DNA of 64,000 bases from Parcubacteria group bacterium GW2011_GWA1_56_13 (GTDB taxonomy: Bacteria; Patescibacteriota; Minisyncoccia; Phycocordibacterales; Phycocordibacteraceae): contig LCRY01000002.1 of NCBI GenBank assembly GCA_001004905.1, positions 378,129-442,128 of the forward strand. The letters run 5' to 3'. The notes under the pieces are model-generated. The model was not told the DNA's origin. It worked only from the letters and a program-made list of their open reading frames with translations, and made no database searches. The position numbers and the translations under genes are program-made. This document shows positions 23,800 to 49,684 of this stretch, piece by piece. The first letter of the stretch is position 1. Every line of letters starts with the position of its first letter.

Positions 23800-25233
23800 T
23801 TATTGCTCGAGTTCGGCATCGAGCTCGCGGTTGAGCACGTGCTCGGATTCGCTCAGCAGTTTTTGCAAGCGGTTCGCGAGCCGCTCTTCCTCGACCGTGA
23901 GATTCCGTTTGGATTTCAGATCTTCGAGCGCCCTGATCTCGGACGTGATGGAACTACGCAATTCGTTAAATTGCCGATGGACGAGGATGTGCATGCGGTC
24001 TTCCTTGTTCACGACGCGGCGACGGAATGTATGGAACCGATGCCAGAGATACCACGCGACGGCAGAGAGCATGGCGAGTGCGGCGAGCGCGAGCAGGATA
24101 AGCGCGAGGTAGTTCGCGATGAGCCACGCAAGTGCGCCCCATGACGGTGTTTCCGCGCCGCGCTGTCCAGTGGAAGTGAATTGCTGACTTGCGGCGACCG
24201 AATTTCCGGCTTTGTCGTACACCGTGACCGAAAGCGTGTGCGTTCCCGCATCTCCTGCGGGTAGCGCGTACACGTCACCCCCTTCGGATGCGCTTACGGT
24301 CGTATCGGCGCCGTCGACGGACAGGACGTAGTGGTCGATGCCGGAAAGCGCGTCGGTCGCCGCAAATTCGACGGCGATGGTCGACGTCGCGGTCGCCGCC
24401 CCGTTCGGGAACGTGATGACGAGCGGGTCAGGCGGCTCCGTGTCGATCTGTATGCGGAATGTGGCGACCTGCCCCCAGCCGTCCGCCCCCTTCTCGCGCA
24501 CATGGAAATACCAAATGCCGTCGCCGAGCTGAAGCTCCTTGTGTGAAATGGGCTCGTCATAGAGGACGCCCGGCGTGCCGTCGGCATTCGTATCGTAGCC
24601 AAGACGTACCGCGGAGACGCCCTGCGCATTCGTCCAGTCGAGCACGACGTTCGAGCGGCTGTACCACTTCGTTTGATCGGGGTGTGTTGAGGAGGTAATG
24701 CGCGCGAGAAGCGGTGACTTTTCGACCGTCGGAGCGGGTACAGGTGCCGCGGAGGTGCTGATGGTAACGGTGGAGGGGTTCGCTCCGGTCAGTATGTTCG
24801 TACCGTTACCATCGTTCGCCAGGACCGCCGATGAGGTGAAATAAACGGTCGCCGTCCCTTCTTTTTTGGCCAAAAAGCGGATGGAGAAAACGGTGCCGGT
24901 GCCGGCAAAGCCGGGATTCGGGACAACGCCACTCCATTGCACGGAACCGGCGAGGTTGGAAAACGTCGGTTCCTGCACCCAGAGCGACAGCACCGAATTC
25001 GCCTTCGAGACGGAGGCGATGGAAAGAAGGTTTGTGGGGAAAGAGACGGTGCCCGAGATCGCGTTCAGTGCCTGATCGACGCTCGCGACGGTGACGGAAA
25101 CAGTGACCTGCTGTCCGGCGGCGACCGAGACGCTCGCGGGAACGATATTGAGCGACGCGGCGTGCGCCGCCGGCCCGGAGATGAGCAGCGCAACAATAGA
25201 GATGCCTATACGCAAACGTATCGATGCCAGCAT
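23800..25233 (-). CDS. cohesin-domain surface protein with C-terminal TM anchor and coiled coil
   Basis: Signal peptide, then LNIVPASVSVAAGQQVTVSVTV cohesin-like beta-sandwich start, SGIDHY motif, TM LAWLIANYLALILLALAALAML, charged helical tail. Confidence 0.5.
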   Translation of the reverse strand: MLASIRLRIGISIVALLISGPAAHAASLNIVPASVSVAAGQQVTVSVTVASVDQALNAISGTVSFPTNLLSIASVSKANSVLSLWVQEPTFSNLAGSVQWSGVVPNPGFAGTGTVFSIRFLAKKEGTATVYFTSSAVLANDGNGTNILTGANPSTVTISTSAAPVPAPTVEKSPLLARITSSTHPDQTKWYSRSNVVLDWTNAQGVSAVRLGYDTNADGTPGVLYDEPISHKELQLGDGIWYFHVREKGADGWGQVATFRIQIDTEPPDPLVITFPNGAATATSTIAVEFAATDALSGIDHYVLSVDGADTTVSASEGGDVYALPAGDAGTHTLSVTVYDKAGNSVAASQQFTSTGQRGAETPSWGALAWLIANYLALILLALAALAMLSAVAWYLWHRFHTFRRRVVNKEDRMHILVHRQFNELRSSITSEIRALEDLKSKRNLTVEEERLANRLQKLLSESEHVLNRELDAELEQ

Positions 25234-25248
25234 ATATTATATATGGGC

Positions 25249-26109
25249 TTAGAAAGTCCTTCGACGGGCCCGACCGATATACCAGAACCCCGCCAACACC
25301 ACTAGGATACCCCAAACAGGCCATTCCCGGGGACGAAGCAAGTTCGTGCGGTGGACAACGCTTATGCGCGCGTTCCCCGCCCGGTCGACGGCTTTTACGG
25401 ACACACCGCTTGTAAGATACTGGTCGCGGATGAGGAAGGGGCTTTCCGCGCGCTCCCATGAGGACGGCCAGGGCAAGCGGGTTTCCGCGACTTCATAATG
25501 GTCAATGCCGGAACCCTTGTCGACGGCGGAGAAGACGACGTACGACAGCCCGCCAAAGGTCTCCTGGTCGCTTCCGAGCGACGCGATAAACGGTTCCGGC
25601 GGAAAAGTGTCCACCGGTTCGGTGTACGTACTCGTTGCATTCGCGGCAACAGTAAGCAGGAGCGGCGGCGCGGTCGCCTGCTCGTTCGTCCCCTCTCCGT
25701 CGTTTTGGAGCACGCGTATGTCCGCCAGTACAAGGCGCGTGTCTCCGATGGCGGCGGTATTGAATATCACGCTGAAGAGTTTTTTCGAGTCGCCAGAGAA
25801 TCCGCCGGGAGTGGCGCCTGCGAACGCGACGGTCCCGTTGTCGAGAGTCGGGTGTGTTATCCACATGCTTATAATCGAGTTCCCGTCGTCGACGGCGACA
25901 GGGGCAAGTAGGTCCGACGGGAATCGAAGCGTACCGGAGAACGCGTTTACTGGCGTGTCGCTTCGTATCGACACGGTTATTTCAACGAGCTTGCCGACGC
26001 CCGGATGCGTCGGATCGGCGGAAAGCGACAGTGTCGCGGCCACCGCGGCAAGCGGTAGGGCAAGGAGGGCGAACGGAACGATGGTATACATCAATTTCTT
26101 CATATTCAC
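25249..26109 (-). CDS. cohesin-domain surface protein (paralog of 23800..25233) with C-terminal TM anchor
   Basis: Signal peptide MNMKKLMYTIVPFALLALPLAAVA, VGKLVEITVSIRS cohesin-like start, SGIDHY motif, C-terminal TM. Confidence 0.5.
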   Translation of the reverse strand: MNMKKLMYTIVPFALLALPLAAVAATLSLSADPTHPGVGKLVEITVSIRSDTPVNAFSGTLRFPSDLLAPVAVDDGNSIISMWITHPTLDNGTVAFAGATPGGFSGDSKKLFSVIFNTAAIGDTRLVLADIRVLQNDGEGTNEQATAPPLLLTVAANATSTYTEPVDTFPPEPFIASLGSDQETFGGLSYVVFSAVDKGSGIDHYEVAETRLPWPSSWERAESPFLIRDQYLTSGVSVKAVDRAGNARISVVHRTNLLRPREWPVWGILVVLAGFWYIGRARRRTF

Positions 26110-27419
26110 TATCCGGTCCAGTGGGACACGAGGATTGAAACATCGCGCAGGTCGACGGCTCCGTCGCCGTTCAGATCCGCCTTAAACCCGGCACCCGAGA
26201 GCGGCCGCCGATACCAATAGAGCATCATTGAGAAATCGATAAGGTTCACGCGACCGTTGTTATTCAGGTCGCCGATTAGTTTTTGCTGTTTCAATTTGGA
26301 AATATTTTCGTCCCCGACGAGAAAGCTAACCGATGCTCCGGAACTGCTTATTTCGTTCACGAACACCGACTTTGCCTGGGCAAGGTGGCTGCCGAGGTCG
26401 AGGACGGAACTGTCGAGATTGAAGAGATAGGCGCCGACGCCGTCCGTGGGCGTTTTAAAGAAGAGGCCGGCGTCGGAATGGACGGCGATGGTGACGGCCG
26501 AACCCGGATACGACTGGCCGAAAATGGCGATGTTGTCTCCCTGCTTCACCTCGCTTTTGTCAACATCAATGGTCGGCGCGATGAATATGCCGCCGACGGT
26601 CGTCGTATTGCCGGACGTCACCGCGGTCGGGAATGAGACCATGCTCGACCGGTTCCCCGCAGTGTCTTCGCTATAGAGCGAAAATATGTAGTCACCGGTC
26701 GAAAGTCCCGAGATCATGACCTGGAAATTCGCCTTGCTGTCTGCGGTAGTGATGGCAGCTACCTGCGCATCCTTAAGCACCGTCACACTGCTTCCCGGAT
26801 ACGCCCGACCGGAAAGCACTACCGACCCTCCGCCCACCGTCGTGATGCTTCCGCCTCCGCCTCCTCCCCCGCCGCTTGAAGCGGGCGTCGCCGACACCTG
26901 CGTCGAGGTCGCGATGACGTTCCCGACCCCGTCAAGAACGCGTACGATGAAATAGTACACGGTGCCGTTCGTAAGGCCCGTTATGGTACTTGAGAGAGAG
27001 CTTGTGGGAGACGTGTACGCATACGGACCGCCGGATACCGCCGCTTCCCCCACCGTGTAGTTCGTCGGGTTCCAGCCGAGGAACCCTTGCGATGCCGTCC
27101 AGGAAAGAGCGACTTGCGCGTTGCCGACGGTTGCGCTCACGACGGGCGTGGTCGCATACGGGAACGCGAAAAAGCCAGCGGTTTCGGTAAACGACGCGGA
27201 TGAGCTGGTGCCTACCGCCGTTCCGGATATCTCGCCGTACAACTTGAAGCTCGCCGATGCGCCGTAACCGCCGGCGCTCATGACGGGATTGAGTGATCGG
27301 TAGTTGGCGGAGGTGAATTCGTCCGCGGACGCGCTTCCTGCGGCGATGAAAAGAGCGATACCGAGAACCCCGAGCCACGGAAAGAGATTGCGCCGGGTTG
27401 GGAAAGAGCCGAAACTCAT
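26109..27419 (-). CDS. secreted FN3-domain protein with C-terminal type I dockerin
   Basis: Signal peptide, poly-Gly linker, two dockerin Ca-binding repeats DLNNNGRVNLIDFSMML and DLNGDGAVDLRDVSILV at the C-terminus. Confidence 0.55.
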   Translation of the reverse strand: MSFGSFPTRRNLFPWLGVLGIALFIAAGSASADEFTSANYRSLNPVMSAGGYGASASFKLYGEISGTAVGTSSSASFTETAGFFAFPYATTPVVSATVGNAQVALSWTASQGFLGWNPTNYTVGEAAVSGGPYAYTSPTSSLSSTITGLTNGTVYYFIVRVLDGVGNVIATSTQVSATPASSGGGGGGGGSITTVGGGSVVLSGRAYPGSSVTVLKDAQVAAITTADSKANFQVMISGLSTGDYIFSLYSEDTAGNRSSMVSFPTAVTSGNTTTVGGIFIAPTIDVDKSEVKQGDNIAIFGQSYPGSAVTIAVHSDAGLFFKTPTDGVGAYLFNLDSSVLDLGSHLAQAKSVFVNEISSSGASVSFLVGDENISKLKQQKLIGDLNNNGRVNLIDFSMMLYWYRRPLSGAGFKADLNGDGAVDLRDVSILVSHWTG

Positions 27420-27423
27420 GAAG

Positions 27424-28608
27424 CTATGGTGTCGTGTTGGACGCCGTATCTATTGTCATGGACGAGATGTCGGTGGTTTCAGATGTTGTCACGGCCGGGT
27501 CCACGACCGTGACGGTGCGCGAGGCACTCGTGGTGTTTCCCGCCGCATCAGTGGCGGAGTAAGTCAGGGTATAGAGCCCTGCGACAGCAGTATCGACCGT
27601 GCCCGATACAGTTATATGTGCCGTGAGGTCGTCGTCCACGTTGTCGGCGGCGGTCGCGCCGGGGTCGGTCCAGGTATCGCCTTTGTTGAGTTGCATCGCG
27701 GCATCGCCGTTTAGGGTCACGATTGGCGGCGTGCCGTCGGGTGATGAACTCGTCGAACCATCGCCCGAGGACACGGTGGTCGTTGCGGTTTCGGGTGGCG
27801 TGGAGGATGCTGTCGTGCTCGTAGAAGGCGTCGAGGTCGCGATCGTTTCCCCTCCGGTTCCCGATGAGGTGGTCGTAGTCGCCATTTCCTCCTGCGAGGG
27901 TCCCGGTGAAGACGCCGCTGTTGACGCTTGTGTCGGTTGCCTTTGCGTTGTCGTGTCCGTTGTTTGCGTGGTCTGCGCGACCTGCGCAGGTCGTTCCGGA
28001 TCGATGATAGGAGCGACCGGTGCCCCGACGTTCGACGTGTCCCCCGCGGCCGCCGCGACGGCGGCGGTTTCCGGCACAACCGGCGTGTATCCTTCGATAG
28101 TTCCATTCCTCGCATTCAGCATCCTTCCCACGAGACCCGAGTATTCCACGGCGACGACCTTTCCCGACTCCCCTTTTCCTTGTTCCAGTTTCTGCACCCG
28201 CTTCAGGTATGTTAATTCGTCTTTCACGTTATCACTCAATTCTTTGGTCACATGGAGGCCGAGATCCTTCCCTTCGAGACTCGCCTTGCTCACGGTCAGG
28301 ATTTTTTCGACGAACAGCGTCCGCCAAACACTGTCTTCGACCGCGAGCGTGCGGTAGGAATACGCTACGTAGTAATTCTTCTCATCGTCGGTGACGGCGT
28401 TGATGCGCAGGCCGAAATCGAAATTATCCAGATTGGCGGTGATGATGACGTGATTGTCGACTGATACCACCACCTCCTTGCTTGAGTACACAGCATCGCG
28501 CACTTGCGGACTCGCGGCATACGCGGCGCCGGAGCCGAGAAAGAGGACTCCGAGCGCTACCGTGAAGGCATTGTTGTATTTGATGAACCGAAGAACACGC
28601 TCCAGCAT
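27424..28608 (-). CDS. secreted protein with Thr/Ser-rich linker and C-terminal Ig-like (DUF5011-type) domain
   Basis: Signal peptide, low-complexity TTQTTDTTTQ linker, C-terminal LTAHITVSGTVDTAVAGLYTLTYSATDAAGNTTSASRTVTV. Confidence 0.45.
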   Translation of the reverse strand: MLERVLRFIKYNNAFTVALGVLFLGSGAAYAASPQVRDAVYSSKEVVVSVDNHVIITANLDNFDFGLRINAVTDDEKNYYVAYSYRTLAVEDSVWRTLFVEKILTVSKASLEGKDLGLHVTKELSDNVKDELTYLKRVQKLEQGKGESGKVVAVEYSGLVGRMLNARNGTIEGYTPVVPETAAVAAAAGDTSNVGAPVAPIIDPERPAQVAQTTQTTDTTTQRQPTQASTAASSPGPSQEEMATTTTSSGTGGETIATSTPSTSTTASSTPPETATTTVSSGDGSTSSSPDGTPPIVTLNGDAAMQLNKGDTWTDPGATAADNVDDDLTAHITVSGTVDTAVAGLYTLTYSATDAAGNTTSASRTVTVVDPAVTTSETTDISSMTIDTASNTTP

Positions 28609-28653: not shown

Positions 28654-31377
28654 CTAGCCGTTCAAATTGATTCCGTTGACCCTCTTCACCGAGTCGCTAG
28701 CGAGGCCGTTCAGTGTTTTCACCGAGGTTTCGTCGAGGCCGTTAAACGTGCTGATGTCGGAAGTCGGTATCGAAGGGCTTACCGACGCGGATTCTGAACT
28801 CGAAGGCGAAAATGAGGCGGAAGGGGACAAGCTTGGGGAGAGCGACGCGGAGGGCGAGCTTGACGCACTCGGGGATGGCGATGGAGAAATGGATGAGCTT
28901 GGCGAGAGAGAGGCCGATGGCGACTGGCTCGGGGATTCGGAAGCGGAGGGAGAGACAGACGGGCTCGGGGAGGCCGATGGCGACTGGCTCGGGGATTCAG
29001 AGGCAGAGGGAGAGAGCGAAGCGGAGGGAGACAGTGATGGCGAAACCGATGATGAGGGAGAGAGCGAGGCGGAAGGCGAAAGAGAGGGCGAAGCGGAACT
29101 CGAGGGAGAGATGGATGCGCTCGGAGATATCGAGGGACTTTCAGATGCGGAAGGCGAAAGCGAGGCGGATGGGCTAAGCGACGGCGAAACTGACGAGCTC
29201 GGTGAAAGCGACGCGCTCGGGGAAAGCGACGGACTTTCTGACGCCGAAGGCGAAAGTGAGGGAGAGACAGACGGGCTCGGGGAGGCCGAGGGCGACTGGC
29301 TCGGGGATTCAGAACTTGAAGGCGAGAGCGAAGCTGAGGGGGAAAGGCTCGGAGATTCGGAACTTGAGGGCGATAACGAAGCGGAGGGAGAGAGCGAAGG
29401 AGAAGCCGAGGCGGAGGGAGAGATTGAGGCGGAGGGAGAGATTGAGGAGGATTCAGAGGCAGAGGGAGAGAGAGACGCCGACGGCGAGAGTGAAGGACTT
29501 TCAGACGTGGATGGCGAGAGCGAGGCGGAGGGAGAGATTGAGGGCGATTCGGATGCCGAAGGCGACTGGCTCGGGGATTCAGAAGCGGAGGGAGAGAGCG
29601 ATGCCGATGGTGAGAGCGACGGGGAGATGGATGAGCTTGGCGAGAGTGAAGCCGAGGGAGAGAACGATGGCGACTCAGACGCTGAGGGCGAGAGTGAAGC
29701 TGAGGGCGAGAGCGACGGAGAAACGGAAGAACTCGGCGAGAGCGAGGCGCTGGGAGAGAGGGACGGCGATTCAGAAGTTGAGGGTGAGAGCGAGGCGGAA
29801 GGTGAGAATGACGGGGACTCGGATGCGGATGGAGAGAGTGAGGCGGATGGGCTGAGCGATGGCGATTCAGAAGTTGAGGGTGAGAGCGAGGCTGACGGAG
29901 ATTGACTCGGCGATTCGGAGGCGGATGGGCTCAGGGATGCAGACGGAGAGAGCGAGGGGGAAACAGAGGAACTTGGCGAGAGCGAGGATGACGGAGAAAG
30001 CGAGGGCGATTCGGATGCCGAGGGTGAAAGAGATGCAGAGGGAGAGAGCGAGGGTGATTCGGAGGCGGATGGGCTCAACGATGCCGAGGGTGACAGAGAG
30101 GGAGAAGCCGATGAGCTTGGCGAGAGCGAGGCGCTCGGAGATAACGATGGTGATTCAGAAGCCGAGGGCGACAACGACGCAGACGGGCTTAAGGACGGTG
30201 AAACCGACGAACTTGGCGAGAGCGAGGCTGACGGAGATTGACTCGGCGATTCGGAGGCGGATGGGCTCAGGGATGCAGACGGAGAGAGCGAAGGTGATTC
30301 GGAAGCGGATGGGCTCAACGATGCCGAGGGTGACAGAGAGGGAGAAGCCGATGAGCTTGGTGAGAGCGAGGATGAAGGAGAGAGGGATGGAGATATCGAA
30401 GAGGAAGGCGACAATGAAGCTGATGGGGAGAAAGACGGACTTTCAGAAGTCGATGGGGATAATGATGCTGAGGGAGAGAGCGAAGCGGATGGGGAAAGGG
30501 AGGGAGAAACGGAAGAGCTTTGCGCCGCTTGCGATGGCGAAACGGAAGCCGAAGGCGAAAGCGATGGGGATTCCGATGTCGAGGGGCTAAGCGAAGCTGA
30601 TGGGGAGAAGGACGGACTTTCAGAAGTCGATGGGGATAATGATGCTGAGGGAGAGAGTGAGGGTGATTCGGATGTAGACGGGCTAAGCGATGCTGAGGGA
30701 GAGAGTGAGGGTGATTCGGATGTAGACGGGCTAAGCGATGCAGACGGAGAGAGCGAGGGTGATTCGGATGACGAGGGAGAGAGAGACGGTGACTCCGATG
30801 GAGACTCTGAGGGCGATTGAGAGGAAGACGGCGAGAGGCTCGGTGATTCGGAAGGTGATTCGGAAGGTGATTCGGAAGGGCTTACCGAGGAAGACGGCGT
30901 CGGCGGCGTGAAGTCAACCGTGCACGTAACGAAATCGATGGAAAAAGTGACCGCGTCGGTATCGTTCCCCCGGATGCTCCGCAACCGGGCCCTGACGTTA
31001 TTGGCGGTTCTCAGGTCAGCGAGCGTTACGCCCGAGGTGACTTGATGTTCCAGGAGCGTGTCTACTGTCTTCTCCGTCGCGTCGCTCTGTTCCGAACCAA
31101 CTGCCGAGGTGCCGATGAACACCTGTATCGCCTGCGTGGCGATCGACATGTTGGTACTGACCTTGTATTGGAGGGAAACCGTAACCGAATTGATCGTTGA
31201 GCTGTCGGGGATGAGCGCGGTGTCAAACGCGGGGAATCCGAAATATGCCGAGATTTCGGCGTTTTTGCCGGGTGCGGCGGTCGCGTACTGAGTATTGTCG
31301 CCATCGTAGGCCAGCTGGGGGTTCGTGTATCCCGTCGTGATGGCTGTATGGGCATTGGCGTTCTGTGTGACAGCCAT
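28654..31377 (-). CDS. 907-aa Ser/Pro tandem-repeat protein (globular N-terminal ~165 aa, ~700 aa of SPSxSxSPS repeats, NGL-repeat C-terminus)
   Basis: Single uninterrupted minus-strand ORF through 2.7 kb. Plus-strand frames are broken by stops. Co-directional with the flanking genes. Confidence 0.6.
28800..30900. repeat. degenerate ~18/48-bp tandem coding repeats (Ser/Pro-rich region)
   Basis: Repeated ggcgagagcgaggcggagggagag... units encoding ([16 protein letters not shown])n on the minus strand. Confidence 0.8.
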
Positions 31378-31380
31378 AAC

Positions 31381-31836
31381 CTATCGCATGATTTTATTCC
31401 ACTCCTCTTCCGTCCAATTATTCAAAAAGTCCCTCTCCCCCTTCACCGAACCGCGGTAATTGATGCTGTGATGTTGCTTCTTCCCCACGCGCTTGCACTC
31501 GCTCCACGCTTTTTTCACATCGAGAACATACTCCCACGCACTGATGGCATGAACCAGGTCAAAGCTGCCGTCTGCGAACGGCAGCGTTTCCACCGAGGCC
31601 TTCAGTACGTATCCTTTGGCGCAGGTATGTTCGAGCGCATAATCGGATACTTCTATGCCCCACGCGTCAAAGCCGCGCTCGCGTAATAGTTTGACCAGAT
31701 AGCCGCATCCGGTGCCGATGTCCAAAATTTTGCATACGCCATATTTTTTCTCCAGCCAGTCGGCGACCGCTTCATAGAACGCATGCCTATGGATAGTTCC
31801 CCAGAGGTCTTCGTAGTATTTCCGATCAAAAATCAT
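31381..31836 (-). CDS. class I SAM-dependent methyltransferase
   Basis: GAGGGG SD before ATG 31836 (MIFDRKYYEDLWG). ILDIGTGCGYLV motif I. The stop lies 3 nt before the start of the repeat protein. Confidence 0.55.
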   Translation of the reverse strand: MIFDRKYYEDLWGTIHRHAFYEAVADWLEKKYGVCKILDIGTGCGYLVKLLRERGFDAWGIEVSDYALEHTCAKGYVLKASVETLPFADGSFDLVHAISAWEYVLDVKKAWSECKRVGKKQHHSINYRGSVKGERDFLNNWTEEEWNKIMR

Positions 31837-31970
31837 AGGCCCCTCATACGTAGATAGTACTCCATACTCCCCCTCTTCTGCTTTCCCAAATTTGGCGCCA
31901 CGACTTGCGGCGACAGGTAGCACGGTATCTCTTTTTAAGAGCCGGTCTCGGTGTGGAGCGCCACTGTCCT

Positions 31971-33722
31971 TTACGTCGCCCCCTGAAGGTCGAGTAGTTT
32001 GCGCACGTTGTCCCATCCGGGAATAGTGTCGACAGTCGCTTCCTTCCAGAAGGCCGGCTTGCGGCGGAACTGGTCCTGGCTCCAGCGCGCGCGGGTCAGG
32101 TTTTTGCCGTGCTTGATGTCAATCGAGGGCGCGGCGGACTGATACGTCTCGAAGCCGTACCAGTGTTCCCATTTGATGCGGCCGTGGGTCATCGGCTCGA
32201 AGCCAATGCGGTAAGAGAAGCCCTCCTTCTCGACAAGCGCCACCCGCTCCCGGAAATGATTTAGGAGTGCTCGCCGACAGGCGACGAGGCCCGACAAGGG
32301 GCTCACGTTGTACTGGATGGCGAATCCGTCCGAGGCGCGCAGGAACCAGTAGTTGCTGTCGTAGTAAAAGACGTCCTCGCGCGGCGGCACGAAGTCGAAG
32401 TGCGAAGGGTGGTAGAGCACGTCGTGTTCGGCGAGGAAGACGACGTCGGTGCCGAGCGTCTCGAGGCCGACGAGTATCTGCTTGAACAGCGTGATGTAGC
32501 TTCGCTTGAGCGGGAGCACGACATTCCTGCCGAACGCGGTCGGCTTGAGCGAGACGGAAACGAGCGGCAACCGTTTGCGCCGCGCGATTTTTTCGAGCTG
32601 GCGCTGGCAAACGCGCTGAATCTTTTCGTCGAGCTCGTTGTCAGTGTAGTAAAGAATGCCCATGCTTGGCACGCGCTTCGGGTCCCGGGGTTCCGAGGGA
32701 GCCGGCACGGCTTCGGTCGGCGCCTGCGGCTCCGGGAGCGGCTCGACATCTTCGGCCCGCGCCGCGCGCTCGTTCTGGAGCGGCCACGCCTTGAGCTTTG
32801 CGAACGCCTCCTCGCTCCATCCCGGTACTGGCCAGAATTTCTCGAGAAGCCACGAGAGTGGGCGCACCTGCTTCTCCCACTTATTGTCGAAAAAGAGCTC
32901 GCGCGCCGTCTTCTTCGCGGCCTGCACCTTGCTCCCCGGGTTCTCGTAAGGGAAGCCGAAGTCGCCGCCCTGTGTCCTGAACATATGCGCATACCACGTC
33001 TGGTGGTTCACAAGTACCCTGCCCCCCGAGAGCCACGTCTTGCAGGCCACCTCGATGCCCTGTGAGCCCCACGAGCCGAACGTCTCGTCGCTTATGCCGA
33101 GTTCCCAGTATTTGTCGCGGGTCAGCATGAAGCAGGAACCTTGAATGGACATCGACTCCGTGAGGCCGGTCGCAAGCGCCTTCTTATATTCAGGGCGGCG
33201 CCTGAAATCCCTGAAGTACTGAAAGTGTGGTTCCTGGTCGAAGCAGTAGGAGTCGCTCTGCGGATTCGTCTTCGGTATCCAGACCACGTCCTTCTCGGCC
33301 GGCTTGCCGCACTCCTTACAGGGCCCGGAGGGGCTCTGGTACCGGACGTGCCCGTCCGGGCACACCCAGTTGAACGCGTGGAGATTGCGCATCACTGGCA
33401 CCATCGTCACGTCGTCGCCGACTTCTTTGAACGCCGCGAGCATCTTGATGTCGAATCCTTGGTCGAACGCGCAGTGCGCATCGCACTTCATCACGTACTT
33501 CGCCTCCGAAAGCCGCGCCGCCTGGTTGGTCGCCGCGCGCTGGCCCTTCGCCTCAGGGTTGCGGATGATCTTGAGCCGCGGGTCTTCCGGCAGGTCCGCC
33601 GCGTAGCCGTCGAGGACCGCGATAACCTCCGTGTCCCCTTCCCGGTGGCTCAAAATGTCCTCGATGGTCCGTGTGAGGAATTCTTCGTTGCGAGCGGGAA
33701 TGAGTATCGAGAGGTCTGCCAT
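31971..33722 (-). CDS. family 2 glycosyltransferase fused to a second C-terminal domain
   Basis: SILIPARNEE...VIAVLDG GT-A N-terminus (DxD region CDAHC). ~300-aa extra C-terminal domain. Confidence 0.6.
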   Translation of the reverse strand: MADLSILIPARNEEFLTRTIEDILSHREGDTEVIAVLDGYAADLPEDPRLKIIRNPEAKGQRAATNQAARLSEAKYVMKCDAHCAFDQGFDIKMLAAFKEVGDDVTMVPVMRNLHAFNWVCPDGHVRYQSPSGPCKECGKPAEKDVVWIPKTNPQSDSYCFDQEPHFQYFRDFRRRPEYKKALATGLTESMSIQGSCFMLTRDKYWELGISDETFGSWGSQGIEVACKTWLSGGRVLVNHQTWYAHMFRTQGGDFGFPYENPGSKVQAAKKTARELFFDNKWEKQVRPLSWLLEKFWPVPGWSEEAFAKLKAWPLQNERAARAEDVEPLPEPQAPTEAVPAPSEPRDPKRVPSMGILYYTDNELDEKIQRVCQRQLEKIARRKRLPLVSVSLKPTAFGRNVVLPLKRSYITLFKQILVGLETLGTDVVFLAEHDVLYHPSHFDFVPPREDVFYYDSNYWFLRASDGFAIQYNVSPLSGLVACRRALLNHFRERVALVEKEGFSYRIGFEPMTHGRIKWEHWYGFETYQSAAPSIDIKHGKNLTRARWSQDQFRRKPAFWKEATVDTIPGWDNVRKLLDLQGAT

Positions 33723-33741
33723 GCTTGGCGCTAGTATCTCA

Positions 33742-34446
33742 CTATTTCTTCATAAACGAAACTTGTTTTTCTTGGCTTAAATTATGGAATAAAGCGCCTG
33801 GATTGAGCTCTTTTCGGTCGTGGAACCGCCCGATGGGGAACAGGTAGATATCCGGACCGAGGACGGGCGCTGTTCCCGCGAACGCGCGGTTCCACTTGCC
33901 GTTGAAATAGCAATCGTCCCCTTTTTTGCTCGCCGGATGGTAGCCGAGCGTGCAGGTCTCGGGCGCGTAGCCCCCCAGCTGATCGAATATCTCTTTTTTC
34001 ATGACGAAGGTGTTGCCGTGCACGCTCGCGTCCATCCTCTCCCCGCTGTAACCGAACTCCGTAAGCGCTTTCCTGTCCTGGGTGAGTGTCCCGTCAGACA
34101 AGAGGAGCGCTATCTGTCGGCGGAATATCATTTTGTTCCCCGTGAAGGCGCGCGTGGCCTCAAGCGCTTCGCGCGAGATGATGTGGTCAAGGTCGGTCAT
34201 GAAAAGATACTCTCCGCGCGCCTGCGAAGCGCCTAGATTCCGGCCGAGCCCCTGCGTCCAGGCCAGGTTATTGTGCGTCTGGAGAATGCGCATGTTTTTC
34301 ATCTCGCCCTGAAGCGGCGGGTCGCTCCCGTCATCGACAAAAATAAATTCGACGTCGTTCGGCGGGTTCATTTTCTTGAAGTATGCGAGCTGCCGCGCGA
34401 ACGCCCCGTGCGAGTTGTATATCGAGATGACGATCGAAACCTTCAT
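33742..34446 (-). CDS. family 2 glycosyltransferase
   Basis: MKVSIVISIYNS...FIFVDDGSD...MTDLDH GT-A motifs. Confidence 0.65.
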   Translation of the reverse strand: MKVSIVISIYNSHGAFARQLAYFKKMNPPNDVEFIFVDDGSDPPLQGEMKNMRILQTHNNLAWTQGLGRNLGASQARGEYLFMTDLDHIISREALEATRAFTGNKMIFRRQIALLLSDGTLTQDRKALTEFGYSGERMDASVHGNTFVMKKEIFDQLGGYAPETCTLGYHPASKKGDDCYFNGKWNRAFAGTAPVLGPDIYLFPIGRFHDRKELNPGALFHNLSQEKQVSFMKK

Positions 34447-34458
34447 ATTGTGCTTGCT

Positions 34459-35112
34459 CTAATAATTTAACCCTACCCTGACGTCGCCGATATGCATAAC
34501 CCTCGGCGCATCGGTGCGCTTGCCCCAGTATGCGCATTTGGCGTTCGCATCTTTGAAGAGCATGCGTCCATACTGGCGTTCCGAGTACGGGACATCGGGC
34601 CAAGGATAATCGTAGACAAGAGATTTGTTATACACGCAGGGATTGCAGGAAAAATTATTCCGGTGTTCCACCCAATAGTGAACGCCGTCGGTTTTGTCTT
34701 CATATCGCTCTGGATGCGAAGCTATTATTCCTCCCTTTTTCCGCTCCCGCGAACCGATTGGCTGCCGGAGAAGCACTATTTCTTTGAGATGGGGGTTATT
34801 CCCCATGACCTTGATCATGTCAGCGACAGCCACGTCTTCCATAAAAAGAAAATCGTCTTCCAGGTGGAAAACCCACTCATTGGCATCCTCTTTGAGCTTC
34901 TGCCAGGCGGAGATCATGGCTTTTGCGAATCCGACCCGATCGGTGGCCGCGATCTCGTACTTGAATCGCTCAAGCCACTTTCGGTACGTATTATCCCCCG
35001 AATCATCATGGATCAATACCCGAGAAAAGGAGGCGTGAAGTTTCCCGAGCGTGGAGAGAGTCCGCTCGAGATATTCCCCGCGTCCATTGGTCATGATGAG
35101 AAGCGTCACCAT
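34459..35112 (-). CDS. hypothetical protein (possible nucleotide-sugar transferase-like), ~50% GC
   Basis: 217-aa ORF in the operon, HLEDDFLF acidic motif. No clear family. Confidence 0.4.
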   Translation of the reverse strand: MVTLLIMTNGRGEYLERTLSTLGKLHASFSRVLIHDDSGDNTYRKWLERFKYEIAATDRVGFAKAMISAWQKLKEDANEWVFHLEDDFLFMEDVAVADMIKVMGNNPHLKEIVLLRQPIGSRERKKGGIIASHPERYEDKTDGVHYWVEHRNNFSCNPCVYNKSLVYDYPWPDVPYSERQYGRMLFKDANAKCAYWGKRTDAPRVMHIGDVRVGLNY

Positions 35113-35612
35113 AAGGTGTCAAGAGGAGTCGTGTTACTGAGGACGGTCGTCCATGGTATATAGCGGTCGAAATCCTTTCGATACTTGAATTCGGGAAATG
35201 CGATTTGGTACATATTTTTCCGAACGACGTTTGAATCGTGGATGACAATGTAGTCGGCGCTATTCTTAAGATGAACTGCGGTTTTGCCTCTCGTGTGCCC
35301 GCCATGGTCAATAAGGATGATGCTGTAATGCCCTGTATTTGGTATTGAGAGATAGTCATCAATAAGATGAACTGCGTGGTTTTCTGACCTATATTCCTCG
35401 GCTAACTTGATGAAGTTCTTGTCGCTCTCGTATGTGACAAGGGAACGTTTTGTCTCGGCGCATAACCAGTGAAGAAGGGGCGTGCTGTAGATCCCGGATC
35501 CCACTTCCATGATCGGTCCCGTAGTCATGGCGGCCAGTTTCAGCAACACAGGCATGTGGGTCGACCATCCTTGTTCGATATTTATGGAGAGTGATTTATC
35601 CGAATGGCGCAT
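35106..35612 (-). CDS. putative class I SAM-dependent methyltransferase (TylF/MycF-like fold), lower GC
   Basis: IMEVGSGIYSTPLL glycine-rich motif. 7-nt overlap with the upstream gene. Confidence 0.4.
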   Translation of the reverse strand: MRHSDKSLSINIEQGWSTHMPVLLKLAAMTTGPIMEVGSGIYSTPLLHWLCAETKRSLVTYESDKNFIKLAEEYRSENHAVHLIDDYLSIPNTGHYSIILIDHGGHTRGKTAVHLKNSADYIVIHDSNVVRKNMYQIAFPEFKYRKDFDRYIPWTTVLSNTTPLDTLW

Positions 35613-35615
35613 AAT

Positions 35616-36302
35616 TTAATAGCCGTGCCTCGTAAACAGTTCGATGAGGTGCGCGGGGAGGAGCGGCTTCACGTCCTTATAGAGCTCTTTCATGCGGGGA
35701 TGGAAATGAAATACCTTGACGGGCTTTTCCGCTTTGGCAAACATCAGCTCGTTATGCCGCATGCGGCCTAAGTTATACGTATTGTTCAGTTTTATATACC
35801 GGTCATTTATATTGTCCACGTTCCTCGATGTTAAACGATACAAGGCTATTTCTTCGTTGACGCGTTTGTCGTTCATGGTCCGCCGAATGAGTTCGAACAG
35901 GTCTTTCGCCCGAGGCGAGAAAAAGAAACTGCCGGTATTCCACATTTCATTGAATCCGTAATCGGTAAAAGCGGCATCCTTATCCCCCAATACGTCCGCC
36001 GGAAATGCACTCACTTGGTAGGCATCGAAATCATGGAACCAACACACACCATCAAGTGCGCCAGTATCCAATAGATGACAAATGACATTTATCTTGCTAG
36101 CCCGTTTTCGATGTGTACAAAATAATTCATCGGGTACCACGATTGCATTAACCCCTTCATAAGAATATGGAAAATTGGTTACCAGGAGGATATCTTCCCT
36201 GTTCCATATCCGTAAAGAATTATCAATTTGCACTTTAACCAGGCCCGCATAATCTTTGGTAAATTCTTTTGACGGATGTATATATGCCATCAAGTTTTTC
36301 AT
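35616..36302 (-). CDS. hypothetical protein, ~44% GC
   Basis: ATG 36302 overlaps the upstream stop (ATGA). No recognisable motif. Confidence 0.4.
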   Translation of the reverse strand: MKNLMAYIHPSKEFTKDYAGLVKVQIDNSLRIWNREDILLVTNFPYSYEGVNAIVVPDELFCTHRKRASKINVICHLLDTGALDGVCWFHDFDAYQVSAFPADVLGDKDAAFTDYGFNEMWNTGSFFFSPRAKDLFELIRRTMNDKRVNEEIALYRLTSRNVDNINDRYIKLNNTYNLGRMRHNELMFAKAEKPVKVFHFHPRMKELYKDVKPLLPAHLIELFTRHGY

Positions 36303-36967
36303 AGCGAAAGCGAGGCTCGCAGCAAGGTCAAGTCGCCCCAAAATGGAAGCGACTCGCGCGGCGGATGCCGGCGCGAGTGGGAAGAGTAGCGGCTCACGTT
36401 GTTCAGCGTTTTAAAGGTGATAACGGGCTCATCGGACGTCCACACGAATTTTGGGTCCGTCCCGAGATGATACGCCCTGTTACTCGGCTTGTCCTCCTCG
36501 GTATACCAGCGCATTTCCTTCCCGAAGACCTGTCCGATGTATAAGCGCCAAAAGTCCTTGCGAATCACTTGCGCGCCGTCCGAGTATCGCTTGAAGAAAG
36601 CCAAATCCGGCTCTGACGCCGTTTTCGGTCGGATATAGGCAAGCCATACGTTGCCGTATCGATAATAATCCGCGCCGTCGGGCCGGAATGCGAAATAGGC
36701 GGGCGGGTACAGCACATCGGCTTCGGCTGTGATGACGTAGTCGGTTTTGACCGCATCGAGCCCGATTTGGATTTGGCGAAATTCGTTCCCGTAGCATGGG
36801 TGATGCCGCCCGACGCAAATGTTCTCTCCAAAGCCGGGGGCCGGCTCCTGTGTCACGGAGACGAGCGGCAGGTTGCCCTTGTGTTTGAGCAGATTCTCGC
36901 GGATTTTCGCCTCGAATGCGGGTTCTTCTGCATTCGCAGAGTAGTAGAGGACGGTAAGATTGTTCAT
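36299..36967 (-). CDS. hypothetical protein
   Basis: 222-aa ORF in the co-directional operon. Confidence 0.4.
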   Translation of the reverse strand: MNNLTVLYYSANAEEPAFEAKIRENLLKHKGNLPLVSVTQEPAPGFGENICVGRHHPCYGNEFRQIQIGLDAVKTDYVITAEADVLYPPAYFAFRPDGADYYRYGNVWLAYIRPKTASEPDLAFFKRYSDGAQVIRKDFWRLYIGQVFGKEMRWYTEEDKPSNRAYHLGTDPKFVWTSDEPVITFKTLNNVSRYSSHSRRHPPRESLPFWGDLTLLRASLSL

Positions 36968-36968
36968 A

Positions 36969-37571
36969 TCAAGTCTTCACGTACATCCAGGAGGGACACT
37001 TGTCCTTCCAGGTAAAGAGCGGTGTGATGCCGTAGGCCGAACACCAGCCGTTCACCGCCTCGATGACACCGAAGTTGAGCTTTGAATTGACGAAATAATC
37101 GTGGCCGATAACAAGCCCTCCCTTGCGCACCTTCCTGCTCCACGCCGCGATGTCGGCGACTACATGCTCGTAGGAGTGGTTCGCGTCGATAAATACCCAG
37201 TCGAGCGACTCGTCGGGAAATTCTTTTACCGCATCCAGAGACCAGGCCTTCTTGAGCGTGACATTCTTGAATCGCGCGAGCTTTTTCTGCGCATGCTGGT
37301 AGGCATCGTTTTCGAGGTCGTTTTTGTCGTAATCGCGGTAATTTTCGTACGAGGTCCACGCGTCAATGCCGATAATCTCCACGTTTGGAGCCCGTGAGGC
37401 GAGCCGCTCGGTAAATCTGCCTCGATATACACCGAGCTCCACCCCCTTTTTGAATCCGAGGTCGTTTAAGAGGCGGCCCATGTCGTGCCAGCGGCTCGCC
37501 GGAATCCTCACAGGCGACGACGCGTTCGGATTGAGCCCGTATCGCCGCATGACGAAGTTGAGGGTGTCCAT
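36969..37571 (-). CDS. class I SAM-dependent methyltransferase (Methyltransf_24-like)
   Basis: VELGVYRGRFTERL glycine-rich SAM motif, FIDANHSYEHV. Confidence 0.5.
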   Translation of the reverse strand: MDTLNFVMRRYGLNPNASSPVRIPASRWHDMGRLLNDLGFKKGVELGVYRGRFTERLASRAPNVEIIGIDAWTSYENYRDYDKNDLENDAYQHAQKKLARFKNVTLKKAWSLDAVKEFPDESLDWVFIDANHSYEHVVADIAAWSRKVRKGGLVIGHDYFVNSKLNFGVIEAVNGWCSAYGITPLFTWKDKCPSWMYVKT

Positions 37572-37572
37572 A

Positions 37573-38430
37573 TCACCCCCAGATGCGCTTCCTCCAGTCC
37601 GTGGGCCAGGATGGGAGCGGCCAGAACTGGTCTATCATGTTCTCGAACGTTTTCCGGTCTTCGTATACCCAATAATTATACGAGAATTTATTGCAGGCCC
37701 GCATGGACTCTCGGCTCATGAAATACATGCGACCGTATTTTGGCCCCTTATGCAGGTGCGCATACCAGGTGTTCTTGTTCGACATTGTTTTGCCGCCCGC
37801 GCGCTTCGTCTTGTAGACGATCTCCTCGCCCTCCTGTCCCCACCCCGAGTAACCTTCTATTTGCATAAGACCGACGTGTTTGAACCACTCTTTCGTCATA
37901 AACCACGCACTTCCCTGGATATGCATCGTCTCGTCGATCGGAATGTGGGAACGCTCGCGAGTGCGAGCGTCCCATTTGAACCCGTGAAGGCCCTTTGGGT
38001 CGAACTTCTCGGGATACATCGTGTATTCGTAGTCGATGGGCGGCCGGTCATCCACCTGCGTCTGTAGGCACCAGTGCTCGGCATCGAGGCGGTGTCGGCG
38101 CGGCACCTGTACCCAATTCGGCTGATGGTCCTTCGCAAGCTGCATGTCAAAGCCCGGTGCGACCATGCAGTGCGCATCAAGTGCCATGATGTATTGTCCA
38201 TTCGCACGTTCGGCCATCGTATTTATTCCGTGCCTCTTATGCGTTTCGCCGCCGCCCAAGGGAATGCGCAGGTACGTAACGCGCGAATCGTGTACAAGCT
38301 CTTCGGTGGGCGGTTCGTACCCATCCAGTATGGGAAACACCTCGATTTCGCCCGTGGCGTTTTTCAGCACATCCTCGATCGTCTGTTTTAAGAAACGTTC
38401 GTTCCTGCTCGGTATGGCAATGGATAACAT
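37573..38430 (-). CDS. family 2 glycosyltransferase (paralog of the N-terminal half of 31971..33722)
   Basis: The ORF track start 38721 gives an Arg-rich N-terminus that is unlikely. ATG 38430 gives MLSIAIPSRNERFLKQTIEDVL, parallel to MADLSILIPARNEEFLTRTIEDIL. Confidence 0.55.
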   Translation of the reverse strand: MLSIAIPSRNERFLKQTIEDVLKNATGEIEVFPILDGYEPPTEELVHDSRVTYLRIPLGGGETHKRHGINTMAERANGQYIMALDAHCMVAPGFDMQLAKDHQPNWVQVPRRHRLDAEHWCLQTQVDDRPPIDYEYTMYPEKFDPKGLHGFKWDARTRERSHIPIDETMHIQGSAWFMTKEWFKHVGLMQIEGYSGWGQEGEEIVYKTKRAGGKTMSNKNTWYAHLHKGPKYGRMYFMSRESMRACNKFSYNYWVYEDRKTFENMIDQFWPLPSWPTDWRKRIWG

Positions 38431-38468: not shown

Positions 38469-39080
38469 CTAGACGTGCGTCAAATAGAGAATGGAGGGAG
38501 CGAAGTACATTGCGTCGGCCGAGAGCGCCCAGCCGATGGGCTGGATAACCTCGTCCGTTCCCGAGGGCTGGACCTGGGAGAGGGCTCCCGTGGCGGTTGA
38601 TACGTAAATGAGTCCGGAGTCCCCGGGTCCGATCGTCCAGTTCCAGGCATCGGCGCGGAGCACCCCGTGGAGGAGGATGCGCTTCGCGCCGGCCCCGGCG
38701 TCTACCGCAAGCGCGACGCACGGCGAGGTTGCGTTCGAAGTTGCGCTCGCCGTACTCAAGTTGCCATTGGAAGCCATGTAGAGCGGCGCGCCGATGCCTT
38801 GATCGTTCGTATCCACAGTCGCCGTAATGATGAGGCCGGAGGCGGAATTGTCGGCCGACGGCGGGTTCATGAGCTTGATGCCCGCAACGCTGTTGATGGG
38901 AAGCTCGCCCATGTCGAGGCGATACCGCGATATCTTGATGGTCTGCGTGCCCACCTTAAGGTCTCCGCATCCGAGGCAGGTAAACAGCGACGTGGGAACT
39001 GTTTTCTTTTTGTCGGACCCCAAAAGCGGTATCCAGTGATGCGTACCGCATTCCTCCTGTTCTTTTTTTCTTTTCTTCAT
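38469..39080 (-). CDS. hypothetical protein with N-terminal Cys4 zinc-ribbon-like motif and beta-rich C-terminal domain
   Basis: CGTHHW...CLGCG. No SD. Function unknown. Confidence 0.4.
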   Translation of the reverse strand: MKKRKKEQEECGTHHWIPLLGSDKKKTVPTSLFTCLGCGDLKVGTQTIKISRYRLDMGELPINSVAGIKLMNPPSADNSASGLIITATVDTNDQGIGAPLYMASNGNLSTASATSNATSPCVALAVDAGAGAKRILLHGVLRADAWNWTIGPGDSGLIYVSTATGALSQVQPSGTDEVIQPIGWALSADAMYFAPSILYLTHV

Positions 39081-40506: not shown

Positions 40507-41496
40507 CTACTCCCCTTCGTCGAACTCAAAGATGGGATTGTCCGTCGTGTCGTACATGACCGTCGTTGACGCGTCGATTTGCTTGAACGTGAATGAATTG
40601 CCGAAGATGACGCCATTCTCGACGACGACATTGCCTTTTGTCCCCGGCTCCGTGACCCCGCAGCCGCCGCCAGAACAGACCCAGAGATTCTCGTTGTTCT
40701 GCCGTATATTCCCGCCCGTTGAAGATATTTCGAGGTCGCCGGTACCGGGGACGGCATACAGTTCACCGTATACATCACTTGCCTGGCTCACTCTGAATTG
40801 AGCATAGCTGTTTGCATCAAACACATTGAATTTTCTAGTCGCCGTTGAAGTTCCGATACCGGTATTGCCGGAATTGTCGATAACGAACAGATTCGTGCCG
40901 GCCGAGTTTTGGACCTGGAAGAGATTTGCCACCTGGCTCGCAATACCTCGAAGTGAAAGTGGCGTTGCCGCCGTCGATGTTGCCTCGATGGAAACCATGG
41001 AGCCCGAAATCGGCGTCGTCGTCCCGAAAGAGGATTGGCCAGTGCCGCTCACGGCTCCTGACAAGAGTGAAAAAAGAGAGGATGTTATCTGTTGGCGGGG
41101 TGAGAGCGTTTCCCAACTGGCATTATCGGAAGAAACCTCTACCTGCAAATAGAGAGAATTGCCGTTTGAGAAGTCGAGGGAGAGGGCGTCGGGATATCCG
41201 TTATCCGTGTCGCCGATATTGACGGTAAATACTCCCTGGCGCACCGTCGCGGAGACCGCGGTCGGCGCGGCGGCCGGCCACGTACGTGAACCAGTGGCTA
41301 TGTTCGATGTGGTCCAAACGGAAAATTTGAAATAGTACGTCGTTCCGGTTGATGAGCCGAGTAGGTCGCCGCTTGCATTTGTCAGTCGGCCCTGATAGCT
41401 GATGATTTGCGGAAGGGTTTGCGCGGCATGAGACGCAGAAAGTGGGAGTGCAACGAAGACCCCACCACAAAAAAGAACCATCAAGAGTTTTTTCAT
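40507..41496 (-). CDS. secreted Ser/Thr/Gly-rich protein (fiber-like), function unknown
   Basis: ATG 41496 gives a classical signal peptide MKKLLMVLFCGGVFVALPLSASHA. The ORF track start 41967 adds an unlikely 157-aa basic extension. Confidence 0.5.
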   Translation of the reverse strand: MKKLLMVLFCGGVFVALPLSASHAAQTLPQIISYQGRLTNASGDLLGSSTGTTYYFKFSVWTTSNIATGSRTWPAAAPTAVSATVRQGVFTVNIGDTDNGYPDALSLDFSNGNSLYLQVEVSSDNASWETLSPRQQITSSLFSLLSGAVSGTGQSSFGTTTPISGSMVSIEATSTAATPLSLRGIASQVANLFQVQNSAGTNLFVIDNSGNTGIGTSTATRKFNVFDANSYAQFRVSQASDVYGELYAVPGTGDLEISSTGGNIRQNNENLWVCSGGGCGVTEPGTKGNVVVENGVIFGNSFTFKQIDASTTVMYDTTDNPIFEFDEGE

Positions 41497-41542
41497 CGTA
41501 GTGCTGCCGCGCAAGCGGCCTATGTACAGTGTAGCGCACTTT

Positions 41543-49613: not shown

Positions 49614-49684
49614 CAAAATAACGAGTCCTGAAAGGACGACTATATTTTGTGAGAGTACTGAGTTCTGTCCGCAGAACGAACGTG

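Follow-up and report, generated by a model that had tools for sequence, protein, structure and literature searches.

A Ser-x array gene beside a putative glycosylation block in a Parcubacteria chromosome, with related modules in phages

The repeat gene and its product

The 64-kb stretch of DNA analysed here (the window) is cellular chromosome of a very small bacterium from groundwater, the Kaiserbacteria/Parcubacteria member GW2011_GWA1_56_13. Its housekeeping content comprises LepA, TsaD, a class I tRNA synthetase, FtsH, RecG, BipA, MurJ, RNR, tRNAs and tmRNA, and none of its annotated genes specifies a portal, capsid, terminase or integrase. A run of fifteen closely spaced, co-directional genes occupies the minus strand between 39080 and 23800: c203, nine genes of glycosyltransferase (GT) or methyltransferase (MT) type, a gene for a repeat protein and four envelope genes. 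TatA and TatC are encoded directly upstream of this run. The repeat gene, with which this study is concerned, is an ATG-initiated open reading frame (ORF) of 907 codons (28654..31377, minus strand). Its product has three parts: an N-terminal domain (N-domain), a long array in which serine alternates with a second residue (Ser-x array) and a C-terminal tail. The initial annotation had described a 907-aa minus-strand ORF starting 3 nt after a methyltransferase stop codon, and the ORF coordinates agree: the start codon lies 3 nt past the stop of a 211-aa S-adenosylmethionine (SAM) methyltransferase gene (31381..32016, minus strand; Methyltransf_11, Pfam E 7.6e-16). At the other end, 45 nt separate the stop codon from the next co-directional gene, so that the packing resembles that of an operon. 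A terminator and promoter scan around the repeat gene found no terminator signal above chance and was uninformative.

The array spans 708 residues (161-868; 28774..30897, minus strand) and is the proposed O-glycan acceptor stalk of the protein. Alternation is strict and the unit measures 16 aa, or 48 nt. Autocorrelation stays near 0.06 at odd lags and is 0.5 or higher at even ones, peaking at 0.78 at lag 16. Tandem Repeats Finder returned periods of 48, 96, 144 and 240 nt over 28914-30879, and a repeat search in the DNA found about 40 copies in the 48-nt register, 60-75% identical. Serine makes up 53% of the array, followed by Pro (19%), Leu (9%), Ala (9%) and Glu (5%), and Ser-x alternation is uninterrupted over two runs of 122 and 584 residues. 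Thus, the tandem Ser/Pro repeats reported in the initial annotation are present, with the 16-aa unit given by the autocorrelation peak in place of the 12-aa unit described there. The accompanying suggestion that the array varies in length was not borne out, the units being only 60-75% identical in DNA and two assemblies having the same length.

The ORF is a real gene under protein-level selection. This conclusion follows from the absence of stop codons in the sense frame of the 708 repeat codons, the pattern of divergence by codon position (0.24, 0.21 and 0.71 at positions 1, 2 and 3 among 38 repeat units), the excess of synonymous changes (6898 synonymous versus 1755 non-synonymous codon differences among the same units) and the in-frame fusion of the array to an N-domain with homologues at E 7e-55. 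In the same 708-codon stretch, stops number 7 and 16 in the other two sense frames and 69, 3 and 7 in the antisense frames. All six serine codons are in use at each Ser position of the array.

It is very improbable that the ORF is not a gene, either because low-complexity DNA here carries real Glu/Gly/Asp-rich ORFs on the opposite strand or because the repeat is a collapsed assembly artefact. The first idea can appeal to the long antisense frames, which stay open, and to public gene calls: in the near-identical contig DQGO01000004.1 (L016, GCA_003531405.1), antisense ORFs of 77, 221 and 383 aa were called instead of the repeat gene. Against it stand the concentration of sense-frame divergence at third positions, the in-frame joining of the array to an N-domain with homologues at E 1e-55 in a single 907-codon ORF and the recurrence of an N-domain-plus-repeat architecture in phage homologues. 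As to an artefact, repeats do break assemblies, and contig L017 ends inside the array. However, the gene has the same sequence and the same 2773-nt spacing in GCA_003531405.1, so that two assemblies agree on its length, and units with 60-75% DNA identity can be placed by short reads. The initial 1.1 kb of the gene is also present in a third contig.

The exact 907-aa sequence does not occur in a collection of 15 billion proteins. The array gene of a second contig, L020, has likewise been replaced by an antisense call, so that both loci for which gene calls are available (L016 and L020) are affected. This suggests a systematic annotation blind spot for Ser-x array genes, in which callers choose the antisense strand. 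Within the window, the antisense (plus) strand at 28667-30590 has three long ORFs, of 412, 243 and 217 aa, with Glu-, Gly- and Asp-rich translations.

The C-terminal tail (39 aa; 28657..28773, minus strand) consists of three [S/L][V/I]KxxNG[L/I] units, summarized as (SVKxLNG[LI])x3, and reads 'FNGL...LNGL...VNGI NLNG', which confirms the NGL/NGI repeat tail noticed earlier. It is 59% identical to the C-terminus of a syntenic array protein in contig L167. A 238-aa FN3-like protein of the phage-like contigs L006 and L007, where an N-domain homologue is also present, has a C-terminus 50% identical to the tail. No signal peptide or transmembrane (TM) segment was found in the 907-aa protein, whose highest 19-residue Kyte-Doolittle hydrophobicity is 1.07; the earlier statement that a signal peptide is lacking is thereby upheld. 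The C-terminus has neither an LPXTG motif nor a hydrophobic stretch. A Tat signal was considered and rejected, as the protein contains no twin-arginine (RR) motif.

The upstream enzyme block

Proceeding in the direction of the block (all genes on the minus strand), c203 (38469..39080), a very conserved 203-aa Parcubacteria protein, is followed by GT285 (37573..38430), a GT-A enzyme with a DxH motif, a Pfam GT2 match and a weak Glyco_transf_7C match, and by MT200 (36969..37571), a SAM methyltransferase (Methyltransf_24, Pfam E 4.5e-20) that recurs beside array genes. Next come u222 (36299..36967), without a Pfam match; u241 (35616..36341), a putative GT with a weak Nucleotid_trans-like Pfam match below the cut-off (E 0.0037) and a homologue in L146; and u168 (35106..35612), which has no assigned function and recurs beside array genes (L138, L226). 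A 217-aa GT2-like protein (34459..35112) scores 22.3 bits in Pfam, just under the cut-off, and matches phrog_3047, 'galactosyl transferase', at E 2e-20 in PHROGs. It precedes a 234-aa GT2 glycosyltransferase recognised by Pfam (33742..34446) and GT583 (31971..33722; Pfam GT2). The latter combines a GT-A domain, with DxH and a Gal/GalNAc-T-like motif, and a C-terminal 'YYTDN' domain. To this half of GT583, u222 is apparently related; tblastn matches of the two proteins fall in the same stretches of several loci. The 211-aa methyltransferase closes the run.

Searches of Pfam, PHROGs, NCBIfam and PADLOC gave no match for u168 or u222 and only the sub-threshold Pfam match for u241. In all, Pfam identifies three GT2 proteins above threshold and one just below it, two SAM methyltransferases and one weak Nucleotid_trans-like protein. 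The initial annotation had listed nine co-directional genes in this interval (31381-38430); the run and its three GT2 enzymes stand, while the third of its methyltransferases was not confirmed, Pfam finding two. G+C content is 0.51-0.53 within 34000-38000, in the glycosylation block, and 0.56-0.61 on both flanks.

All nine block products are soluble, with no TM segment in any of them, and none has a hydrophobic segment that would mark a flippase, a polymerase or an initiating phosphoglycosyl transferase. The block would thus be suited to protein glycosylation in the cytoplasm rather than to polysaccharide export. In a PDB sequence search, all 14 matches of GT583 were polypeptide GalNAc-transferases or one unnamed glycosyl transferase. 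Its profile matches GalNAc-T2 at E 3.7e-9 over the Gal/GalNAc-T motif, with 'SWGSQGIEVACKTWLSGGRV...WYAHMFR' aligned to a GalNAc-T2 segment ending '...VGHVFR' and 'WGSQGIEVACKTWLSGG...HMFR' to one ending '...HVFR'. The GT285 profile matches GalNAc-T4 at E 1.5e-9 over positions 3-251, that is, the whole catalytic domain; with ordinary GT2 enzymes, the match is confined to the first 80-100 residues. DxH is invariant in both alignments (D85-x-H87 in GT285, D81-A-H83 in GT583). Polypeptide GalNAc-transferases start mucin-type O-glycosylation on Ser/Thr stretches (PMC3417536). Judged by these profile matches, the closest solved relatives of GT285 and GT583 are polypeptide GalNAc-transferases, the initiators of mucin-type O-glycosylation. 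Neither protein has a Ricin_B match or a TM segment; since both the lectin domain and the membrane anchor are absent, we do not file them as GT27.

Homologues of GT583 number more than 5000, many of them on contigs of at least 50 kb, and those with a source name come from Paceibacterota, Patescibacteria, Microgenomates or Collierbacteria. For c203, at least 256 homologues were found (64-81% identity), with named sources mostly in Paceibacterota, Minisyncoccia, Andersenbacteria and Zambryskibacteria. L018 and L019, two further Parcubacteria contigs, show the same gene order, TatC-TatA-c203-GT2-GT2-MT. The glycosylation block belongs, in other words, to a TatC-TatA-c203 locus that recurs in other Parcubacteria contigs, a point that had escaped the initial annotation, and on these comparisons the nine-gene block is a native locus. 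The idea that the block is phage cargo was rejected, given that TatC, TatA and c203 precede it in two other Parcubacteria contigs and that GT583 has more than 5000 homologues. Searches of the same four databases with c203 gave only a faint match to phrog_12121 (E 0.008). Its core was likened to the phage capsid-decoration (beta-tulip) fold represented by YSD1_16, Mycobacterium phage Adjutor gp16, the cyanophage Pam3 cement protein and lambda gpD.

Arrays, enzymes and N-domains in other bacteria and phages

Viral and metagenome contigs were scanned for DNA encoding S-P-S-x-S-P-S-x-S-x-S-P-S. The scan yielded 239 loci, 73 of which have an ORF with at least 20 consecutive Ser-x dipeptides. Association with the enzymes was measured in loci having a mixed Ser-x array of at least 100 aa and at least 4 kb of other DNA, with enzyme matches counted at E <= 1e-10; control loci came from the same scans and had no such array, including pure (SP)n or single chance matches of a looser pattern. 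Homologues of GT583, GT285 or MT200 were present in 11 of 19 array loci and in none of 127 controls (Fisher p = 7e-12), an enrichment that is partly taxonomic, the controls being mostly from other taxa. In a genome of about 1 Mb, a gene present once would be expected within 10 kb in only 1-2% of cases. Wherever enzyme matches occur, in 17 loci, the array gene is co-directional with the enzyme genes, often with gaps of less than 50 nt, and it may stand on either side of them.

The non-repeat parts of the array proteins are highly diverse: 26 N-domains fall into 25 BLASTP clusters and 31 C-terminal regions, which are more often shared, into 22. Two recurrent C-terminal domain types are 'EWEGQ...YNRN' and 'LKYRH...VQ.R.E'. 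Frequently, two to four array genes stand in tandem (L050, L164, L172, L174, L188 and L233). A single array ORF measures 1,515 aa in L172, and one in L233, which runs off the contig, exceeds 2,253 aa.

Two contigs resemble the window closely. In L020, a TatA-c203-cluster arrangement is followed by an array gene with a 215-aa N-domain and nearly the same repeat as in the window; a relationship between the two N-domains was rejected (hhalign probability 1.9%). In L167, GT genes are followed by the gene for a 1133-aa array protein with a different N-domain and the same tail, and then by homologues of the 394-aa (61%), 436-aa (41%) and 286-aa (32%) envelope proteins of the window. Relocation of the repeat gene away from the transferases in relatives would have weakened the proposed link between them; its matching position in L020 and L167 favours it. 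In L167, the GT genes are separated from the array gene by five additional genes (2160-7095), two of which resemble, by eye, AbiE-type nucleotidyltransferase toxin/antitoxin proteins. This junction may be an insertion hot spot.

The same combination occurs in phages. L138 encodes a portal/adaptor (phrog_332, E 9e-69), a major head protein (phrog_3437, E 4.5e-71) and a tail protein (phrog_394), after which come GT285-like, u168-like and GT583-like genes and then a gene for a protein made of Laminin_G_3 plus a Ser-x array. In L117, the major head gene is followed by GT285-like, MT200-like and GT583-like genes and then by an array gene. On their gene content, which includes portal/adaptor, major head and tail tubular genes, L138 and L117 are bona fide phages whose structural module encloses the enzyme and array genes. 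In the siphovirus L112, which has a tape measure gene, array genes precede the head-tail adaptor. No match to c203 or TatC was found in the array-carrying phages.

A second connection to phages lies in the N-domain itself (residues 1-160; 30898..31377, minus strand). AlphaFold2 models it as a jelly-roll beta-sandwich resembling carbohydrate-binding modules (CBM), with a pLDDT of 95.8, in keeping with the globular N-terminus of about 165 aa postulated at the outset. It has no match in Pfam, PHROGs, NCBIfam or PADLOC, and its profile finds none in a PDB sequence search; fold searches return generic CBM-like jelly rolls only, with no close solved phage match. A profile scan of genome contigs gave one weak match. 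Its similarity to P0001 (65% identity, E 7e-55) spans the whole domain of about 160 aa from residue 1, and every invariant family column is kept in the window copy (alignment A1). The closest homologues, 55-65% identical, are all in phage contexts: L001, a contig with P22-portal, Phage_capsid_3 and SU10-adaptor genes; L004, a T7-like contig with terminase, portal, capsid, nozzle and gp14; Gp80/phiTE-type contigs; and five IMG/VR contigs. These contigs include podovirus- and siphovirus-like ones, and the gene usually stands after the major capsid gene and before head-tail or tail genes.

An HMM search of the N-terminus had been recommended in the initial annotation. Exhaustive profile searching yielded 2,270 cluster representatives, 303 of them at E <= 1e-30, and shows the domain at the head of phage structural proteins. 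In most of the 150 members listed, the domain starts at residue 1, and total lengths range from 179 to 2,694 aa. Phage members carry unrelated tandem-repeat tails, namely LSGIGxL, ADALAPQLTAPAAL and SVVESSIxSL. A Ser-x array was seen in none of 167 members inspected, a count that is biased, gene callers missing such genes. From these similarities, the N-domain is a member of an unnamed phage family of N-terminal beta-sandwiches. That both the N-domain and the tail are held in common with phage structural proteins had been overlooked before. The window copy is not in a phage structural module and its neighbours are cellular.

A candidate glycoprotein fibre, its alternatives and its surroundings

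We consider it probable, from the comparisons above, that the ORF encodes a modular mucin-like fibre protein that is produced together with the soluble enzymes of the adjacent upstream genes and receives its O-glycans from them in the cytoplasm. GT285 and the N-terminal half of GT583, with their GT-A fold, DxH and Gal/GalNAc-T-like motifs, would add the first sugar to serines of the array, whose Pro-flanked Ser resembles mucin acceptor sites. The other GT2-like proteins and those with the 'YYTDN' domain would lengthen the glycan, and the SAM methyltransferases would methylate the sugars. The product would be a stiff bottle-brush stalk of about 700 residues with the beta-sandwich domain at one end and the (SVKxLNG[LI])x3 tail at the other. 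Because the tail is kept along with the downstream envelope genes, whereas the N-domain changes from genome to genome, the tail may dock the fibre to the cell envelope and the N-domain may be its variable business end. Likewise, since phages carry the enzyme-array module and the N-domain and tail are shared with phage proteins, the module would have been exchanged between these bacteria and their phages. Glycosylation, the identity of the sugars, the order of the enzymes, the route of export, the surface location and docking are what we infer from this arrangement. The initial annotation had already put the repeat protein forward as an O-glycosylation substrate of the upstream enzymes; the enzyme association, the co-directionality, the contigs with a matching gene order and the likeness to GalNAc-transferases are consistent with that idea.

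Several observations weigh against the fibre model. The 907-aa protein has no signal peptide or other recognisable export signal, for which reason a surface location is conjectural, and most other array proteins with a complete N-terminus also lack such a signal. The only conserved neighbour heading the block is c203, not the array gene, and at least one related cluster, that of L021, has no array gene within its 16.8-kb contig. The similarity to GalNAc-transferases is remote (E ~1e-9) and the enzymes are without a lectin domain; the enrichment of enzyme genes, as stated, is partly a matter of taxonomy. The case for glycosylation is supported by evidence of a comparative kind.

Two other explanations, each unlikely in our estimation, deserve consideration. 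The repeat gene might be a stranded phage gene (a prophage remnant or moron) specifying a head fibre or decoration protein of the virion and not a fibre of the cell, its adjacency to host glycosylation genes reflecting use of the host system by the phage. The 55-65% identical N-domain homologues placed after the major capsid gene in podovirus- and siphovirus-like contigs would fit, as would a family of 2,270 clusters whose listed members mostly have the domain at residue 1 followed by variable extensions, in the manner of a virion-anchoring module. The tail in common with a protein of a phage-like contig, the missing signal peptide and the presence of the same enzymes and array proteins in phages point the same way. 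However, the annotated parts of the window contain no portal, capsid, terminase or integrase gene and the neighbours are housekeeping genes; the array gene holds a matching position with conserved neighbours in two other contigs; and GT583 homologues are abundant, many of them on contigs of at least 50 kb.

The chance is equally small that the block serves c203, the downstream S/T/P-rich envelope proteins, or a glycolipid or polysaccharide, with the repeat protein a mere neighbour. In its favour, c203 stands at the head of the block in every case and its conservation far exceeds that of the array proteins, the L021 cluster lacks an array gene in its contig, and the 394-aa envelope protein offers a 60-aa stretch that is 65% Ser/Thr/Pro. 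Yet the array-enzyme association is strong and directional and holds in phages that have no c203 or TatC match, and the products of the block are all soluble, with no membrane-spanning candidate for a lipid-carrier or export enzyme among them.

Going beyond the fibre model, we entertain as a tentative and rather doubtful proposal that Parcubacteria and the phages infecting them have in common a dedicated module for mucin-type O-glycosylation of proteins. It would combine GT-A enzymes of the GalNAc-T-like kind and methyltransferases with (Ser-x)n acceptor stalks that bear end domains of great diversity. In the chromosome, the module would be of phage origin and domesticated, flanked by c203 with its putative capsid-decoration fold and carrying an N-domain of phage capsid-accessory type, and would function in attachment to host cells or in binding and neutralising phage particles. 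Public annotation would miss the whole gene class, its antisense strand being the one called.

In serine-rich-repeat protein (SRRP) adhesins, Ser-x arrays are known to be O-glycosylated in the cytoplasm and exported afterwards (PMC6973325, PMC5578698). Like the 907-aa protein, the Gram-positive SRRPs (GspB, Fap1, PsrP, SraP) have a long Ser-x array flanking a non-repeat binding domain and are encoded beside several soluble glycosyltransferases. In contrast, the 907-aa protein has no N-terminal signal peptide, its N-terminus being part of a folded domain, and no LPXTG anchor. The annotated genes of the window include no SecA2/SecY2/Asp or GtfA/GtfB; the neighbours are TatA/TatC and GT2-type enzymes, and the proposed initiating enzymes are of the GT-A/DxH, GalNAc-T-like kind. 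Moreover, the x positions of the window array are mostly Pro, Leu and Ala, and the N-domain and tail are phage-related. The protein is not a classical SRRP, failing three of the four defining features, so that of the SRRP analogy drawn in the initial annotation the Ser-x array is what survives (signal peptide, LPXTG, accessory Sec and GtfA/B genes being absent). For its parallel with S-layer glycoproteins, no S-layer evidence was found.

With eukaryotic mucin-type O-glycosylation (GT27), GT285 and GT583 have in common their best solved matches, DxH and the WGxxxxE...W..GG...H.FR Gal/GalNAc-T motif, along with a candidate acceptor that is a Ser/Pro-rich tandem repeat. They differ in being soluble bacterial and phage enzymes of remote homology, in lacking both the type II membrane anchor and the ricin-type lectin domain, GT583 having the 'YYTDN' domain instead, and in being accompanied by methyltransferases.

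Phage decoration and head-fibre proteins (phi29 gp8.5, T4 Hoc, lambda gpD-type cement) resemble the N-domain homologues in being encoded just after the major capsid gene; these homologues carry variable repeat extensions, and the neighbouring c203 was likened to the decoration-protein fold. However, the N-domain has a CBM-like jelly-roll fold to which no solved phage structure is close, and the window copy is chromosomal. Virion glycosylation is known in giant viruses and chloroviruses, and was reportedly described in mycobacteriophages by Freeman et al. in Cell Host Microbe in 2023. In such systems, phage-encoded glycosyltransferases modify virion proteins. L138 and L117 are similar in having phage GT genes beside structural genes, the GT and MT genes lying inside the structural module and followed by the array gene. 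The known systems differ from them in enzyme families and in acceptor (a short C-terminal extension versus a long Ser-x stalk), and the module described here is shared with the host chromosome. Capsid glycosylation has also been inferred from two phage GT genes (PMC11256854).

Swapped end domains, as seen in the array proteins with their 25 unrelated N-domains in 26 proteins, are likewise a feature of the mosaic adhesive trimer (MAT) fibres of Bdellovibrio (NCBIfam NF053851), phage-fibre-like proteins with exchanged recognition domains in a bacterium that attaches to bacteria. The MAT fibres have no sequence relationship to the 907-aa protein, and are not known to have Ser-x arrays or glycosylation genes of their own.

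No prior description of this enzyme-plus-array module was found in the literature. The pairing of enzymes and arrays in related bacteria and phages points to an undescribed bacterial and phage mucin-type glycoprotein system. If so, bacteria and phages would possess a counterpart of mucin-type polypeptide glycosylation, a process commonly considered eukaryotic, with enzyme-substrate pairs readable from gene neighbourhoods, and the problem of glycosylating Ser-x arrays that SRRPs pose would have a second, unrelated enzyme solution. Such a system would give a first handle on how the ultra-small, host-dependent bacteria of the Candidate Phyla Radiation (CPR) build surface fibres, and would show genes swapped between them and their largely unknown phages.

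Downstream of the repeat gene (23800..28608, minus strand), Pfam identifies four tightly packed envelope genes, for an Ig-like protein of 394 aa, a dockerin/Big_6 protein of 436 aa, a 286-aa protein and a cohesin protein of 477 aa. Each product has a signal peptide or TM segment (hydrophobic N-terminus), and the four are candidate docking partners of the fibre. The N-terminus of the dockerin/Big_6 protein (26109-27419, minus strand), MSFGSFPTRRNLFPWLGVLGIALFIAAGSASA, resembles a twin-arginine signal; this protein, the only one among the repeat protein and the downstream proteins with an RR motif, is a candidate substrate of the nearby TatA/TatC. The Ser/Thr/Pro-rich stretch of the Ig-like protein (27424-28608, minus strand) lies at residues ~237-296 and is a second possible O-glycosylation acceptor.

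Elsewhere in the window, the membrane protein encoded upstream of TatC (40507-41967, minus strand) has a faint NCBIfam match, below the cut-off (E 1.5e-4), to the N-terminal domain of Bdellovibrio MAT fibre proteins. Within its ORF, 77 nt of the window (41221-41297) correspond to 2 nt in DQGO01000004.1, which is otherwise 99.99% identical; the final ~450 nt of that contig do not align to the window. RNA genes are rather dense, with nine in 64 kb, including a tRNA-Ile with anticodon TAT (46613-46689, plus strand) and tmRNA (49211-49614, plus strand).

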